Positions 23,615 through 30,608 of a stretch of DNA of 64,000 nucleotides are shown here, piece after piece. How positions within the stretch are numbered: the stretch's first letter is position 1; each line of letters opens with the position of its first letter. Source of the stretch: a phage. The DNA lies in sequence record OZ346158.1; one strand, written 5' to 3'. The translations under genes and the position numbers were made by a program. The notes beneath the pieces were generated by a model. The model did no database searches. It worked only from the letters and a program-made list of their open reading frames with translations, and had not been told where the DNA came from.

Positions 23615-23920
23615 GTGGTGGCAAGGATGCCACTTAAAAGAGTAATAAACATGTTATACCAGAAACACGAACTTTGTGCAGAAAAAGAGTTAAATTTTGA
23701 CAAAGTTATCCACAGATATTGTTATGGGAAAACCGGAAGACAACTAAGAAGGTGCACTCCAGCATTCTTTCACCCCAGCAGGCGGCTAAGTCCTGAAGAA
23801 GCAACAGCAGAAAGGGTTGCATACAACTGGGAAGTTGTGTACGATATTGACAGATCCGATGTGACATCTGTTTTGGAAAACTTTGAAAACACTTACACAC
23901 AAGTAGAGGATTTTTACTAA
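23615..23920 (+). CDS. hypothetical protein
   Basis: 101-aa ORF; GTG start at 23615 or ATG at 23627 (start uncertain). Confidence 0.4.
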   Translation: MVARMPLKRVINMLYQKHELCAEKELNFDKVIHRYCYGKTGRQLRRCTPAFFHPSRRLSPEEATAERVAYNWEVVYDIDRSDVTSVLENFENTYTQVEDFY

Positions 23921-25104
23921 TGTCAAGAAACGTATTTGAAAGTGGTCAAATCACTGTCCGTGAGTTGCCAGCTATCATTCAGTTTGCCCAGCGTCATAAC
24001 CGATCTGTCCTGATTTTAGGACCAATGGGTGTGGGAAAGAGTCAGGTGATGAAGCAGATCGCTGATAATATGTTCGGTGAGCGAGATGACAACCTGGTTG
24101 ACGTGCGGCTGTCAGATAAAGATCCTGCCGACTTATCTGGGCTACCTATCCCTGTAGAAGCTGATGGAACTACACGTACAGTGTTTGCAATTCCAGAATT
24201 TTGGCCTGCAGATCCGAACTGGAGCGGAATTATCTTTCTGGATGAGCTTACTCATGCAGATAACTATCTGCAAAAGGTTGCAATGCAGATTATGCTCGAC
24301 CACAAGTGCGGCACCTATGCATTCCCTAAAGGCTCTGTTTTTGTGGCTGCGGGTAACCGTTCTACAGATGGTGCTGTTCTTTCGGCGCTCGAAGCTCCTC
24401 TGGCTAACCGCTTTATCATTGTAGAGGTTACAAGCAATGCAGAGGTGTTTATTGAGGACTACGCATTCCTCAACGGGGTTCACTCCTCTGTGATTGGGTA
24501 TCTGAAAAGAGTTCCATCAGCTATTGATAATTATGAGGCTATGGCTGAGATTAATTGTCCATCTTTTGCCACACCACGATCTTGGGTTGCTGCATCTGAC
24601 ATCTTGCACGATTTTGACAGCGGTATTATTTCTGACGCTATGGCCCGTGTTCTTCTGCAAGGTGCTATTGGTCACACTGCAGCGGTAGAGATCTGGACCT
24701 ACCACACCAAGAAACGCAACTTACCGGAAATCGGTCGGATTATGGCAGGGGGTTGCAAAGAATACGTAGGTCCTAAACAGCCGGACATCTTGTGGATTCT
24801 TGGATCTGAAGGTTGTATCGCTATTCGTAATATGATGGAAAATGCAAGTATCTCTGACGAAGATCTTGTTAGCTGTGTGGCAAACTTCCTCGATTTCCTT
24901 TGGGAAAATTTCAAGGACGAGAACCGAGATTTTGTATTCTCAGTCTTTATGGCGATGATGAAACCTAATGCCTTAGGAAATGCCTTGCTTATCGGTAAAG
25001 GGCGTGACAAGATTGTTGCTCAGCTGATTAAAGCATACCCAAACCTGATGAAGATTGTAAAAGAGTTTGGTGAAGAGTTTAGCGCCATTTTGGCTAAAGC
25101 TTGA
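23920..25104 (+). CDS. MoxR-like AAA+ ATPase
   Basis: 394 aa; Walker A LILGPMGVGKSQ, Walker B IIFLDELTHAD, sensor region AAGNRST and RF arginine typical of MoxR/CbbQ-type ATPases. Confidence 0.8.
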   Translation: MSRNVFESGQITVRELPAIIQFAQRHNRSVLILGPMGVGKSQVMKQIADNMFGERDDNLVDVRLSDKDPADLSGLPIPVEADGTTRTVFAIPEFWPADPNWSGIIFLDELTHADNYLQKVAMQIMLDHKCGTYAFPKGSVFVAAGNRSTDGAVLSALEAPLANRFIIVEVTSNAEVFIEDYAFLNGVHSSVIGYLKRVPSAIDNYEAMAEINCPSFATPRSWVAASDILHDFDSGIISDAMARVLLQGAIGHTAAVEIWTYHTKKRNLPEIGRIMAGGCKEYVGPKQPDILWILGSEGCIAIRNMMENASISDEDLVSCVANFLDFLWENFKDENRDFVFSVFMAMMKPNALGNALLIGKGRDKIVAQLIKAYPNLMKIVKEFGEEFSAILAKA

Positions 25105-25494: not shown

Positions 25495-25503
25495 TTTCTA
25501 AGA

Positions 25504-25534
25504 CACCCCCGCTTCGGCGGGGATTTTCTATTTG
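25504..25534 (+). terminator. rho-independent terminator
   Basis: CCCCGC-TTCG-GCGGGG hairpin followed by ATTTTCTATTT. Confidence 0.7.
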
Positions 25535-25542
25535 GAGTTATT

Positions 25543-26043
25543 GTGAAAATTAAGATCTTTGCTATTATTTTGAGCGCATTTTTATCGCTGCCTGTTGTTG
25601 CAGCACCAAAACAAAAAGTATATCATACTTGCAAGCCCTCAGATACTAAGGAAAACATTCTGGCATGCAATATCTACAGGGAGGCTAGAGGGGATGGCAC
25701 GATGGGTATGCTGGCATCAGGGTTTGCCACACTAAACAGGAAATCTCACCCCAAATACCCAGACACTATAAGAAAGATTGTCTACCAACCTAACCAGTTT
25801 TCGTGGACAAACCACGGCAAAACTTTTAAGGTGACAGAAAAAGATTCATGGGATCACGCTAAAAGTCTTGCAAAGATGCTTCTAAAGGTCTATAATAACA
25901 ACCATGTTGCATACATGGCTATGGACATAACAGGTGGAGCAACACACTACCATACAACCAAAGTACGACCGAAATGGGCAAAAAAGATGCAGAGGACAGC
26001 TCAATTCGGGAGTCATATCTACTACAAGGAGCGCAATAAATGA
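25543..26043 (+). CDS. secreted cell-wall hydrolase, SleB-like; candidate endolysin
   Basis: 166 aa; N-terminal signal peptide MKIKIFAIILSAFLSLPVVAAP; CNIYREARGDG and HYHTT resemble the SleB/Hydrolase_2 family; GTG start after GGAG. Confidence 0.7.
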   Translation: MKIKIFAIILSAFLSLPVVAAPKQKVYHTCKPSDTKENILACNIYREARGDGTMGMLASGFATLNRKSHPKYPDTIRKIVYQPNQFSWTNHGKTFKVTEKDSWDHAKSLAKMLLKVYNNNHVAYMAMDITGGATHYHTTKVRPKWAKKMQRTAQFGSHIYYKERNK

Positions 26044-28022
26044 TTGTAAACAGTAATGAAACTAAAGCAGTACTAACCGGAAATATGGAGGTCACCAGGG
26101 GCTCAATTTCTCTGAACAAAGAGACTTTTGGGCTAATCATTAAAGGGATTTACGAAGATAAGGTGCTGGCAAGCTGCCGTGAACCAATCTTCAATGCTGT
26201 GGACTCCCATGTTGAGTCTGGACGGGGTGATGTACCGATCATCATTCACTCCCCTACAGACCTTGAACCATACTTCTTTGTGCAGGACGTTGGATTGGGT
26301 ATGTCAGAAGAGATGGTCCGCAACACTTTCATGAACCTCGGGGAGTCAACCAAGCGCAACAGCAACGCCCTGGTAGGTAATAAAGGTGTAGGTTCAAAGG
26401 CCCCGTTCAGCATGGTGGACACTTTCGATGTGATCAGTGTGCACAACGGTGTTGAAAGCACATATCTATTGTTCTTGGATCAGGGTATCCCAAACGTTAC
26501 CAAGATCCGCGAGCGGAAGACTGAAGAGCACAACGGGGTAAAAGTTCAGTTCCATGTTAAGAAAGAGCATGTTCTGAAATATCGCACTGCTATTGCGTCA
26601 TGCCTCCGCTATGCAAAGTTTCCGTTTACCGTTACCGACCCTATGACCAGTAAGATGCTGGAAGGTGACAAGGTTGAGGCGCAGTATCGCTACGAGAAAG
26701 ATGGTTGGAAAATGACTATCCTGAAAGGTTATACCAGCTCTGATGAGAGCCGTGTTGTGATGGGTCACCAACCTTACCGCTCCAAGTTCCTGGAGACATT
26801 GACCGATTACCCTGCAATCTGCGTGGAAATTCCTATTGGGGATTGCAATATTAACCCTGGGCGTGAATGGACCATAGAGGGACATGACGACGGTGGATTC
26901 CAGGATCGCCTGGAGGCCTTTGTCAAAGAAGGTATACGTCTTCGCGGGGCAGAAGTTGTTGCAGAACTGGAGACGGCAAAAACCTCCGCAGAAGCACGTG
27001 AAATGATGAAGAATAGTGGAGTGTTCGGACACATCTTCGGCAAAAACTTTATGTGGAACCGTTGGGAAGAAACAGGGCTTGGCGACTTAGGCGATTGTGA
27101 AATTTTCGCTGGCGGCTTAAATAAAGGCCGCATAGGCTATGCTCGTTACGGAAAGTCGGAGTTCTTACGAGGTGTATACCTTGTATTTAACGACGGAGAC
27201 GGCAAATATAACCGGAATAAGTGTAACTACTTAAGCGAGATCACCGGACGCAACGTTTTCTATTGCCGGAACACGGATCTGGTGAAAGAGTTTAAAGAGG
27301 CGGCACACCATCCGTTCTTTGCAGATACGGTCAAATTGTTATCGGAGCTTCCACGCCGACCTGCGAAGAAAGGTGAAACCAAAACTCGTTACGAGCCAGG
27401 CTACTGGGTTAAGAAGCTTAGAGAGGATGGCTACTTCCATCGTGAGCGCCTCACGAAGGCAGAGTTCAAGAAGATTAAGCATTGCATCCCTTATGAGGGG
27501 GATATCCAACGGGGAAGCTGCTGGCTGGGCCAGATGAGTAACATCTACCAGCAAAATTATGACCGTGTGCGTGCTGCACTCCAGATTCCTGAAGGTGAAG
27601 ATCTGTACCTGGTATCAGAATCTCGTCTGCTTTGGACTGATCCTGATTGCCAGTATGTTACAGAGAAGAATGTGGAACATTTGTTGAAAGAGGATGCTTG
27701 GAAATTCTTACTGACTCGCGCAGCAAATGAAACTTCATATGACAGCCTGTATAGACAATTAGGGAAAATTATCCCCATGCAGGATTTTGGAAATTATCGG
27801 CCACATTTCCACAAGTGGGAAGGTAACACCGCGTGGAAGCACAGTGAGCTAAATCATCGTGCCAAAATCTTAATCGCCAACCGAGTTAAATGCGGGAAGG
27901 CCTATATTGCAAGATTGGAAAAGAAATACCCACTTTTGAAGCATGTAGGCTTGAAATATTGGGACACCCCTGCTATGATTGAATACCGTGAGCTGATTGA
28001 TACAAAGAATAACACCAAATAA
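26040..28022 (+). CDS. GHKL-type (Bergerat-fold) ATPase domain protein, 660 aa
   Basis: N-terminal motifs in order: N-box REPIFNAVDSH, G1 FVQDVGLGMS, G2 GNKGVGSKAPF; no TOPRIM or His-kinase domain apparent. Confidence 0.6.
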   Translation: MIVNSNETKAVLTGNMEVTRGSISLNKETFGLIIKGIYEDKVLASCREPIFNAVDSHVESGRGDVPIIIHSPTDLEPYFFVQDVGLGMSEEMVRNTFMNLGESTKRNSNALVGNKGVGSKAPFSMVDTFDVISVHNGVESTYLLFLDQGIPNVTKIRERKTEEHNGVKVQFHVKKEHVLKYRTAIASCLRYAKFPFTVTDPMTSKMLEGDKVEAQYRYEKDGWKMTILKGYTSSDESRVVMGHQPYRSKFLETLTDYPAICVEIPIGDCNINPGREWTIEGHDDGGFQDRLEAFVKEGIRLRGAEVVAELETAKTSAEAREMMKNSGVFGHIFGKNFMWNRWEETGLGDLGDCEIFAGGLNKGRIGYARYGKSEFLRGVYLVFNDGDGKYNRNKCNYLSEITGRNVFYCRNTDLVKEFKEAAHHPFFADTVKLLSELPRRPAKKGETKTRYEPGYWVKKLREDGYFHRERLTKAEFKKIKHCIPYEGDIQRGSCWLGQMSNIYQQNYDRVRAALQIPEGEDLYLVSESRLLWTDPDCQYVTEKNVEHLLKEDAWKFLLTRAANETSYDSLYRQLGKIIPMQDFGNYRPHFHKWEGNTAWKHSELNHRAKILIANRVKCGKAYIARLEKKYPLLKHVGLKYWDTPAMIEYRELIDTKNNTK

Positions 28023-28032
28023 GGAGACAGTT

Positions 28033-29238
28033 ATGATTTTCATCTACGAACACTTCAAAACTCGTAAAGAAGCACGCGACCGCCGTGCAGAACTTGAGAA
28101 GAAGGGTTTCACATGTGCCATTGAGAAAGGCGACACAACCTGGACACTGGCAGTTGGTGCCCCAGAGTTGTTCGATCCTGACCGTGACAGCGTCTGCTAC
28201 ACCCGTGAGGATTTTGAAACCCGTGAAGAGGCCCGTCTATTTCGATATGGGCTGGAAGATAATGGTAAGTACGCCATGATCTTAGACTTAGGCGAAGGTT
28301 CCGTTAAACGTTGGGGCGTGGTATACCCACTGTGTGTTGTTCACGGTGTGGGGTTCACTGGGGTGGCAATCAAGTCAGAAGAACCTTTAGTAGAAGTCAA
28401 AGACCCGGTGCTGGAGGTGGTGAGCAGTGTGTCTCAGCAACAGACTCGAAGCATCGAGCCTTTAGTAGTTATTTGTGGGGAACTCCTCCAGATCACCTGC
28501 AACGAAGGCATTTTTGAAATTCGCCGCAGCGAAAGTGAGGAAGTTTACCAGAAAGTCTTCGACCATATCTCTGTTCAGGAATATGATGAGGCAATTGGTG
28601 AAATCCTTGTCTGGCTGGAACGCAAGAATGAGTTCACCACACTTGCAGACAACCTGATCATGAAAGATGGTAAGCTCTACTACTACGGTGTAGAGATGCG
28701 ATCCACCATTGCAAAGAAAATTGAGAAAGACTATGCAGACGGAACACTGGATGACCGCTATGTGAAATTCCTCGTTCGCCTGCTACGCAATCCTTCTGCA
28801 AAATCTGTAAACATGCTCTACGATTTTATGCAGGCCAACGATATCCAGATTGCAGAAGATGGTCGAATCATTTGCTACAAAGGGGTTCAGTTTAACGGCA
28901 GCAAGTGGGTGGATTGGCACAGTGGTAAAGTTCCACAATACCAGGGTGCTTTTGTATCCATGCCTCGTAACTTTGTAGAGGATGATCCTGAAGCTGCGTG
29001 CTCCTATGGCTTACACTGCGCCAGCAAGGAGTATGCAAAGAGCTACGGCACTGTAATGACTGTCATGGTTGACCCTGCAGATGTGGTTAGTGTGCCATAC
29101 CAACACAATAGCGCTAAGTGCCGTGCATGCCGCTATGAGATTGTGGTAGCTCCGGAAGCACGCAAGGACGGAGACCCGATTGAATACGTGGTTGACCGAG
29201 ACGGTAACACTATCGACATTCTTTACGAGGAGGCGTAA
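28033..29238 (+). CDS. hypothetical protein
   Basis: ATG at 28033 preceded by AAGGAGA RBS (longer ORF start at 27997 overlaps upstream gene). Confidence 0.55.
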   Translation: MIFIYEHFKTRKEARDRRAELEKKGFTCAIEKGDTTWTLAVGAPELFDPDRDSVCYTREDFETREEARLFRYGLEDNGKYAMILDLGEGSVKRWGVVYPLCVVHGVGFTGVAIKSEEPLVEVKDPVLEVVSSVSQQQTRSIEPLVVICGELLQITCNEGIFEIRRSESEEVYQKVFDHISVQEYDEAIGEILVWLERKNEFTTLADNLIMKDGKLYYYGVEMRSTIAKKIEKDYADGTLDDRYVKFLVRLLRNPSAKSVNMLYDFMQANDIQIAEDGRIICYKGVQFNGSKWVDWHSGKVPQYQGAFVSMPRNFVEDDPEAACSYGLHCASKEYAKSYGTVMTVMVDPADVVSVPYQHNSAKCRACRYEIVVAPEARKDGDPIEYVVDRDGNTIDILYEEA

Positions 29239-30608
29239 TGGAAAAAGGGCAGTATGATGTAGGCACAGATGCTGCCCTTGTTGCAATCATGAGTGGGGAG
29301 AATGTCTTCGTTTCAGGACCCGCAGGTTGTGGGAAGACGTACCTCATCAACATGATCCAGTCAATGTATGGAGACTCTTGCATAACGGTTGCCCCGACAG
29401 GGGTAGCCGCTTTAAACGTTAATGGAGCAACAGCACACCGAACCTTCGATCTTGCAGCAGGTGTGAGCATGGAGTCTGACTGGACTGCAATAAGGGCAAA
29501 AACAGCAAAGCCTTTGAAAAGCAAGGCATTTACCATCCTAATTATCGATGAAATCTCTATGATCCGTGCTGATAAGTTTATAGAGATGGATAGGAAACTC
29601 CGCTTCCTTCGAAAAAATGACAAACCTTTCGGAGGCATACAGGTCATATTGTTTGGCGATTTTTACCAGGCACCTCCTGTTGTCTCTTCTATGGAGAAGG
29701 AGGCCTACTTCAACTTCTACCACACAGACCTATGTTGCTATACCGAATCTTGGAAAGAGCTGGACCTTCACAACATAGCCCTAATAGACCAGTTCCGACA
29801 GGAGTCTATTCGATTTGCCACAATGCTCAACTGTGTTCGTGAGGGTCGTCGCATAAAAGAGGTTGTAGCAGAACTTAATGCTCGCTGTTACAAAGGCGGT
29901 GTACCAACAGACGCTCTCACAATTTGCGCCACCAACAAACAAGCAGAGGAAGTGAACAGAAGGTTCTATGATGCCATCAACGCCCCAGAGAAGGTATACA
30001 CTGGTGAAATGAAGGGTAAGTTTCCCTCCACCCTGCCAGTTGAGCAGGAGATGAAGTTGAAAATTGGCATGAAAGTTATGATAACCGCCAACGATGTTGA
30101 CCCGACGCACAAAGTACCTTATTATGTTAACGGAACACGTGCCACAATTGTTAAATTTAAGAACAAGGCGGTGGTGGTAGAGCTTGAAGATGGAACACAG
30201 GTTGACATAGAGCAGAGGTTGTGGGAAAATAACGAGTATAAGCCATCTCAGAGATACAACATTGCAGAAAGGAAGATGGAGAAGTTTATAGAGAGGGTAG
30301 TGATTGGGTCATACAGGCAACTTCCTCTGAAATCTGGGTATGCCGTAACATCTCATAAAAGTCAAGGACTTACGCTAGATTGTTACAACCTGGACCTTGG
30401 AAAGAACGGAGCTTTCTCTCCTGGGATGACGTATGTTGCTTTGAGTCGGGTTAAGACAATACAAGGAATAAACTTGTTGCGTCCACTAAGAGAAGTTGAC
30501 ATTATTGTTGACCCGCGAGTCGTAGAGTTTTACAATACAACATTCCCTGACTTAGACAAAATTGTCAGGAAAGATTTTGAAACCAGAGCCGAAGAGGGGG
30601 ACGTATGA
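29238..30608 (+). CDS. Dda/Pif1/RecD-like SF1 DNA helicase
   Basis: 456 aa; Walker A SGPAGCGKT; Walker B IIDEISM; C-terminal motif VTSHKSQGLTLD characteristic of RecD/Pif1/Dda helicases. Confidence 0.85.
   Translation: MEKGQYDVGTDAALVAIMSGENVFVSGPAGCGKTYLINMIQSMYGDSCITVAPTGVAALNVNGATAHRTFDLAAGVSMESDWTAIRAKTAKPLKSKAFTILIIDEISMIRADKFIEMDRKLRFLRKNDKPFGGIQVILFGDFYQAPPVVSSMEKEAYFNFYHTDLCCYTESWKELDLHNIALIDQFRQESIRFATMLNCVREGRRIKEVVAELNARCYKGGVPTDALTICATNKQAEEVNRRFYDAINAPEKVYTGEMKGKFPSTLPVEQEMKLKIGMKVMITANDVDPTHKVPYYVNGTRATIVKFKNKAVVVELEDGTQVDIEQRLWENNEYKPSQRYNIAERKMEKFIERVVIGSYRQLPLKSGYAVTSHKSQGLTLDCYNLDLGKNGAFSPGMTYVALSRVKTIQGINLLRPLREVDIIVDPRVVEFYNTTFPDLDKIVRKDFETRAEEGDV

Follow-up and report, generated by a model that had tools for sequence, protein, structure and literature searches.

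The open reading frame (ORF) at positions 26,040-28,022 of a 64,000-nucleotide stretch of phage DNA (sequence record OZ346158.1; hereafter, the window) is very probably rIIA of a Vequintavirus (rV5-like) myovirus of E. coli. Together with the adjacent gene rIIB it very probably constitutes the rII module, which is dispensable on ordinary hosts and needed against RexAB. A first-pass annotation, made from the letters of the sequence, had described the product as a large GHKL (Bergerat-fold) ATPase with no recognisable partner domain. The protein is no orphan. It is a full-length RIIA, which matches the PHROGs family phrog_612 ("RIIA lysis inhibitor") with an E-value of 4.3e-124, and residues 1-657 align to positions 1-723 of 725 in the profile. 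By BLASTP, T4 RIIA is 28% identical to it in residues 1-198 (E 3e-21), and Foldseek returns full-length alignments to RIIA of KVP40, 44RR2.8t and others (E 1e-30 to 1e-33, 730-760 columns). T4 RIIA (NP_049616, 725 aa) has a homologous N-terminal GHKL module with the same invariant motifs, including the S/G-R-E loop. The two proteins differ in that the C-terminal ~450 residues cannot be aligned pairwise and the window protein is 65 residues shorter; the C-terminal half is tied to T4-like RIIA through profile and fold only.

The locus is about 90-99% identical at the DNA level to 121 phage records, nearly all of them E. coli Vequintavirus myoviruses. The closest match is Bas58 HeinrichReichert (98.6-98.7%), and Bas54 (MZ501093) is 97.7% identical over the locus. 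RIIA of the Vequintavirus phages (rV5 gp001, EdH4_00063, Bas54 bas54_0066 and its counterpart in Bas58) is the same gene, with the same 660-aa length and point substitutions only. The protein of EdH4 is 98.5% identical to that of the window (10 of 660 residues differ, none in the conserved motifs). Many of the matching records, including those of nomine, rV5 and slur16, name the pair rIIA/rIIB or "membrane integrity protector", and the genome numbering of rV5 and several relatives starts at rIIA, as in T4. The gene is already known: dozens of near-identical genomes carry the annotation, and functional tests of the 98.5%-identical orthologue have been published. Our analysis contributes the identity and fold of the window protein, the conservation of its motifs and the pairing of its gene with rIIB, and the Rex-dependent phenotype and dispensability are carried over from work by others in near-identical phages. 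A PADLOC search with the ORF returned only noise (E 0.005 or worse), and thus the gene is not a known defence-system component.

Published experiments define what the module does. Knock-down of RIIA or RIIB in T4, MM02, EdH4 (a Vequintavirus), SUSP1 and N4 left infection of Rex-free E. coli unaffected and lowered the plating efficiency when the cells expressed RexAB of lambda (Adler et al. 2025, PMC11879866). This counter-defence phenotype is common to divergent rII modules. Transposon insertions in both genes of Bas54 are tolerated on K-12 in the HIDEN-SEQ data (10.1101/2025.11.20.689424): rIIA has 100 TA sites and a log2 fold change (log2FC) of -0.01, and rIIB has 58 TA sites and a log2FC of -0.34 (q 0.84). 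In the same data, insertions in the helicase gene next to rIIB (bas54_0068) are strongly depleted (log2FC -6.3), and the T4 genes rIIA and rIIB are reported to become conditionally essential once RexAB is present; effects of the Bas37 rII genes were reported there from a clinical isolate. The suggestion of the first-pass annotation that the ATPase could be a counter-defence factor agrees with this known role of the RIIA family; for its other suggestion, a replication accessory, we found nothing in support.

Several observations weigh against this account of the rII module. The route by which RIIAB inhibits RexAB has been called unclear (Wein et al., 10.1101/2023.05.28.542683), and the BASEL study found very few wild-type phages to be affected by RexAB. 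The main natural target of the module may be something other than RexAB. In the searchable literature we found no biochemical activity of RIIA (ATPase, dimerisation or RIIB binding), nor any mechanistic paper on RIIA structure, ATPase biochemistry or a link to Hsp90. RIIA also contains no hydrophobic or membrane segment (the maximum Kyte-Doolittle mean over 19 residues is 0.83). Thus, any membrane association would be peripheral or through a partner. T4 RIIA is associated with the inner membrane in classical biochemistry, for which the sequence offers no explanation.

The first-pass annotation had recognised no partner domain for the ATPase and overlooked rIIB, which is a separate adjacent gene. 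Its product matches phrog_609 (RIIB) with an E-value of 1.4e-61, is 37% identical to T4 RIIB over about 200 residues (BLASTP, E 4e-39) and is 97.5% identical to RIIB of EdH4. In T4, rIIB likewise lies directly downstream of rIIA on the same strand. Among the best 80 related viral contigs out of more than 587 relatives, 72 have an rIIB homologue as the next gene downstream of that for RIIA, and six of the eight loci without a match are truncated contigs that stop within 2.2 kb of the rIIA start. The other two metagenomic viral contigs, L021 (5001-11176) and L085 (5001-10924), encode an RIIA-like protein and extend more than 5 kb downstream with no detectable rIIB homologue. Natural RIIA-RIIB fusions also occur: the phrog_609 profile, 1055 positions long, matches RIIA with its N-terminal end and RIIB with its C-terminal end, and the RB43 protein Q56C47 (BFVD; 1049 aa) is annotated as an RIIA-RIIB fusion. 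These fusions are indirect evidence that RIIA and RIIB may act as one unit. Given the tight linkage of rIIB and the fusions, the "missing partner domain" is a separate gene.

The window RIIB is 89 residues longer than T4 RIIB and has a different N-terminus, without the weak helix-turn-helix matches found at the N-terminus of the T4 protein. The N-terminal extension, residues 1-130 (28033-28420), is absent from T4 RIIB. Within it are two segments that resemble each other, FKTRKEARDRRAELEKKGF... and FETREEARLFRYGLEDNGKY..., and the first gives a sub-threshold match to the SPOR domain (19.3 bits, where the cut-off is 21). It is RIIB alone, in T6, that sets off a bacterial gasdermin system, that of Lysobacter (Wein et al., 10.1101/2023.05.28.542683).

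RIIA begins with a GHKL ATPase domain (Table 1). The ORF listing has one ORF at exactly the coordinates given in the first-pass annotation, and the N-box, G1 and G2 motifs that it had picked out are present in the order described, matching the GHKL patterns ExxxNxxD, DxGxG and GxxGxG. The class assignment was borne out by a profile search, in which Pfam HATPase_c_3 scored 34.9 bits (E 1.8e-8), above its cut-off of 25, and the active site looks intact. Conservation was counted in an alignment of 167 full-length, diverse relatives. Within the GHKL part Arg47, Glu48, Asn52, Asp55, Asp83, Gly85, Gly113, Gly116, Gly118 and Gly166 are invariant (167/167), as are Tyr38 and Pro72, and Gly87 (165/167), Ser103 (166/167), Lys105 (164/167) and Lys120 (166/167) are nearly so. 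Tyr246, Arg275 and Glu276 are invariant in the same 167 proteins and lie beyond the ATPase domain. As judged from sequence, the invariant catalytic residues, together with Arg275 and Glu276, argue for a working ATPase with a conserved enzymatic cycle.

Table 1. Positions of rIIA, rIIB and their parts and signals in the window.
Feature	Coordinates	Strand	Remarks
Shine-Dalgarno-like AAGGAG of rIIA	26026..26031	+	8 nt 5' of rIIA ATG
GHKL (Bergerat-fold) ATPase domain, about aa 25-195	26112..26624	+	
Motif I / N-box, REPIFNAVDSH, aa 47-57	26178..26210	+	Glu48, Asn52, Asp55
Motif II / G1, FVQDVGLGMS, aa 80-89	26277..26306	+	Asp83-x-Gly85-x-Gly87
S-T-K-R segment, predicted ATP lid	26346..26357	+	aligns with Hsp90 "SGTK" lid
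Motif III / G2, GNKGVGSKAPF, aa 113-123	26376..26408	+	Gly113-x-x-Gly116-x-Gly118
Gly166	26535..26537	+	aligned with Gly of Hsp90 motif IV "RGT" ("eenGvei" vs "lgrGTml")
Second domain and helical linker, about aa 196-343	26625..27068	+	predicted fold like transducer/middle domain of GyrB/ParE, MutL, MORC, Hsp90
PGREW loop with invariant Arg275-Glu276	26856..26870	+	between strand 260-264 and helix 287-310
Lineage-specific C-terminal half, aa 344-660	27069..28019	+	alpha/beta region, then helical bundle
Shine-Dalgarno-like AAGGAG of rIIB	28021..28026	+	overlaps rIIA stop codon
rIIB (401 aa)	28033..29238	+	phrog_609, BLASTP to T4 RIIB, public annotation
Conserved RIIB core, aa 172-371	28546..29145	+	aligned with T4 RIIB residues 107-304

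The S-T-K-R stretch has low pLDDT values (51-63), as expected of a mobile lid. When the family profile was searched, the best solved relatives were Hsp90-family N-domains (E 5e-9), with "GeS.TK" aligned to "AKSgTK". A single-sequence search of the PDB gave nothing significant (best match TRAP1, E 0.11). Alignment to E. coli HtpG with hhalign reached 96.6% probability over residues 28-199, which covers the N-domain only, and similarity in the second domain was unconfirmed at this level. Searches of NCBIfam gave matches far below threshold only (sacsin, 20.9 bits against 50; HSP90, 18 against 455; BbrUII, 17.8 against 550), and weak Pfam matches to DUF7003 and SACS (E about 0.009) fell below the cut-offs and were not used.

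A second domain follows the ATPase domain in the predicted structure, as in proteins of the GHL/MORC type. The first-pass annotation had seen no TOPRIM, kinase or MutL transducer features; for the transducer, this stands for the sequence and fails for the predicted fold, in which the second domain is transducer-like. Comparisons with solved structures score higher, and over more residues, for two-domain modules than for isolated domains (Table 2). We therefore conclude that, in the model, residues from about 1 to 340 are a two-domain GHL/MORC-like ATPase module, not a bare Bergerat domain.

Table 2. Structural comparisons of the predicted RIIA fold with two-domain modules, isolated domains and histidine kinases.
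Structure	Score	Residues
TRAP1 (full length)	18.1	303
T6 topoisomerase II ATPase domain	17.0	269
ParE 43 kDa	17.0	274
MORC2	17.0	262
MutL	15.9	248
SMCHD1	15.6	260
Isolated N-domains (Hsp90, HtpG, GyrB)	11.6-14.8	136-160
HtpG middle domain alone	6.0	119
Histidine kinases	8.4 or less	about 110

The family is very large. With a threshold of E 1e-3, a search of 1.84 billion cluster representatives (50% identity) found 14,050 relatives, and 11,570 remain with a threshold of E 1e-10. In almost all, the length is 650-790 aa and the aligned part is confined to the first 170-340 residues of the query, and the alignments of many distant relatives stop exactly at residue 276. According to the published description of the RIIA family (Iyer et al. 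2021, PMC7824862), its members carry a GHKL ATPase domain at the N-terminus and vary in the C-terminal region, and the window ORF conforms to this. No solved structural neighbour was found for residues 344-660.

How the module might work is suggested by its fold and invariant residues and by the way GHKL clamps behave in general. The gamma-phosphate is sensed by Arg380 in yeast Hsp90 and by Lys337 in GyrB, and Arg275 of the PGREW loop is a candidate for the same role in RIIA. On this basis we put forward, tentatively and as a possibility that we would not favour at even odds, that RIIA is an ATP-gated dimeric clamp of the GHL/MORC type, with Arg275-Glu276 reading the gamma-phosphate, and that the C-terminal half and RIIB choose which abortive-infection trigger or effector is neutralised. 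RIIA would be an active ATPase of the GyrB/Hsp90/MutL/MORC type. Binding of ATP in the Bergerat pocket (Glu48, Asn52, Asp83, Gly113/116/118) would close the lid, and lid closure would bring the transducer-like domain, with Arg275-Glu276, onto the gamma-phosphate and lead to N-terminal dimerisation. The RexAB system of a lambda prophage would otherwise depolarise the membrane of the infected cell. The ATP-gated clamp and RIIB, acting via the lineage-specific C-terminal half, could block or remove the signal or effector that triggers depolarisation, and in this way the rII module would give escape. The C-terminal half and RIIB would couple the ATP cycle to a target at or near the membrane. The parts of this proposal that we infer are the hydrolysis of ATP, dimerisation, the physical binding of RIIA to RIIB and the identity of the molecular target.

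We regard as improbable, though the best placed of the alternatives, that RIIA is the phage's own Hsp90-like chaperone, which acts on clients by folding or remodelling them and is linked to Rex indirectly. All of the best sequence-profile matches in the PDB are Hsp90-family N-domains, the lid segment aligns with that of Hsp90, and some relatives in BFVD carry the label "HSP90 family". However, RIIA scores far under the family cut-offs, as the NCBIfam HSP90 value illustrates, and does not match the C-terminal domain of Hsp90 significantly. Unlike Hsp90, HtpG and TRAP1, it is phage-specific and paired with RIIB, and neither its strict pairing with rIIB nor a Rex-specific phenotype is a feature of Hsp90. 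An Hsp90-type chaperone is best seen as a description of how RIIA may work and not as a rival identity.

The name "lysis inhibitor", found among PHROG and RefSeq product names, could be taken literally, with RIIA acting directly on the holin/endolysin pathway and delaying lysis. T4 r mutants were isolated through their rapid-lysis plaque type, and rIIA is translationally coupled to the upstream gene for a SleB-like cell-wall hydrolase. We consider this very unlikely. The label is historical, whereas the documented role of divergent rII modules, including those of Vequintavirus, is in Rex-dependent plating. The Bas54 genes have no fitness effect on Rex-free K-12, RIIA has neither a membrane segment nor a holin-like feature, and the adjacency of hydrolase and rIIA was seen in Vequintavirus genomes, which are the genomes that we looked at.

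Also very unlikely, and the least likely of the weighed alternatives, is that RIIA serves as a replication or repair accessory, either as the ATPase subunit of a type II topoisomerase of the phage or as another DNA-clamping GHKL enzyme (MutL- or MORC-like). The gene does lie near genes for a PIF1/Dda-like helicase and a DNA methylase. However, Pfam identified no TOPRIM, GyrB C-terminal, MutL C-terminal or DNA-binding domain in the ORF, and we found no TOPRIM domain with a DNA-gate partner subunit of the kind that marks a type IIA topoisomerase B subunit. In contrast to GyrB/ParE, phage topoisomerase II, MutL and MORC/SMCHD1, RIIA is without TOPRIM, endonuclease, CW and coiled-coil regions and resembles them at the sequence level in the motifs only. 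The T4 topoisomerase (gp39/gp60) is encoded apart from rIIA, the Bas54 gene is dispensable whereas the neighbouring helicase gene is depleted of insertions, and the assignment to the RIIA PHROG is overwhelming. A protein kinase was rejected, as the defining extra domains or phenotypes are lacking; neither a DHp or HisKA domain nor a kinase-type ATP lid was identified.

For the locus itself the result carries little weight, as the window gene is an orthologue, annotated as a matter of routine, of a gene that ranks among the most famous in molecular genetics. The wider interest is in the molecular action of RIIA and RIIB across the whole of a very large family; according to a review, rIIB is present in about 5% of database phages. 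New here, as targets for mutation, are the two-domain GHL-like module, the invariant Arg-Glu pair outside the ATPase domain and the C-terminal half without a solved relative. If the proposal of an ATP-gated clamp is correct, it would provide a testable mechanism for the rII/Rex problem, which is about 70 years old, and one that is family-wide rather than locus-specific. In that case, defences other than RexAB could be countered by the Vequintavirus module, either in its place or in addition to it.

The rIIA frame is on the forward strand and comprises an ATG start, 660 codons and a stop. The start codon is supported by the Shine-Dalgarno-like box upstream and by the N-terminus M-I-I/V that homologues conserve. 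The stop codon of the hydrolase gene overlaps the rIIA start (ATGA at 26040-26043), and thus hydrolase, rIIA and rIIB may be a single translationally coupled unit. Only 10 nt separate rIIA from rIIB. For rIIB the mechanical ORF list gives a TTG start at 27997, whereas the ATG at 28033 agrees with the start annotated in phages nomine and EdH4.

The gene order of phage nomine (SleB-like hydrolase, RIIA, RIIB, helicase, adenine methyltransferase) is identical to that of the window, and the hydrolase, rIIA, rIIB and PIF1/Dda-like helicase are neighbours common to the window and the Vequintavirus phages. The first-pass annotation had placed the ATPase gene between a secreted cell-wall hydrolase and a helicase; the hydrolase gene does adjoin it, but the 401-aa rIIB separates it from the helicase. 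The hydrolase, encoded at 25543-26043, is of the SleB/CwlJ type (Pfam Hydrolase_2, E 2e-19), and its N-terminus is hydrophobic and resembles a signal peptide. At 25507-25522, 5' of its gene, lies a strong terminator-like hairpin (CCCCGCTTCGGCGGGG and then a T-run). Two genes upstream of the hydrolase, at 23920-25104, is a gene for a 394-aa AAA+/MoxR-like ATPase (phrog_1297, E 9e-111), for which every Pfam AAA match is sub-threshold. The helicase gene that follows rIIB, at 29238-30608, encodes a PIF1/Dda-like protein (Pfam PIF1, E 1e-32) and is the counterpart of bas54_0068. A promoter scan gave 16 sites against 11.5 ± 3.2 expected and no promoter was called, and no tRNA genes were found in the window.

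Also present among the database matches are sixteen records named "Campylobacter phage" (MG065659, MG065654, MG065646, MG065662 and others) that are 95-97% identical to the locus when compared over 25500-29300. Fifteen of the sixteen list Campylobacter jejuni as the host. These host labels look wrong, or the phages look to be contaminants.

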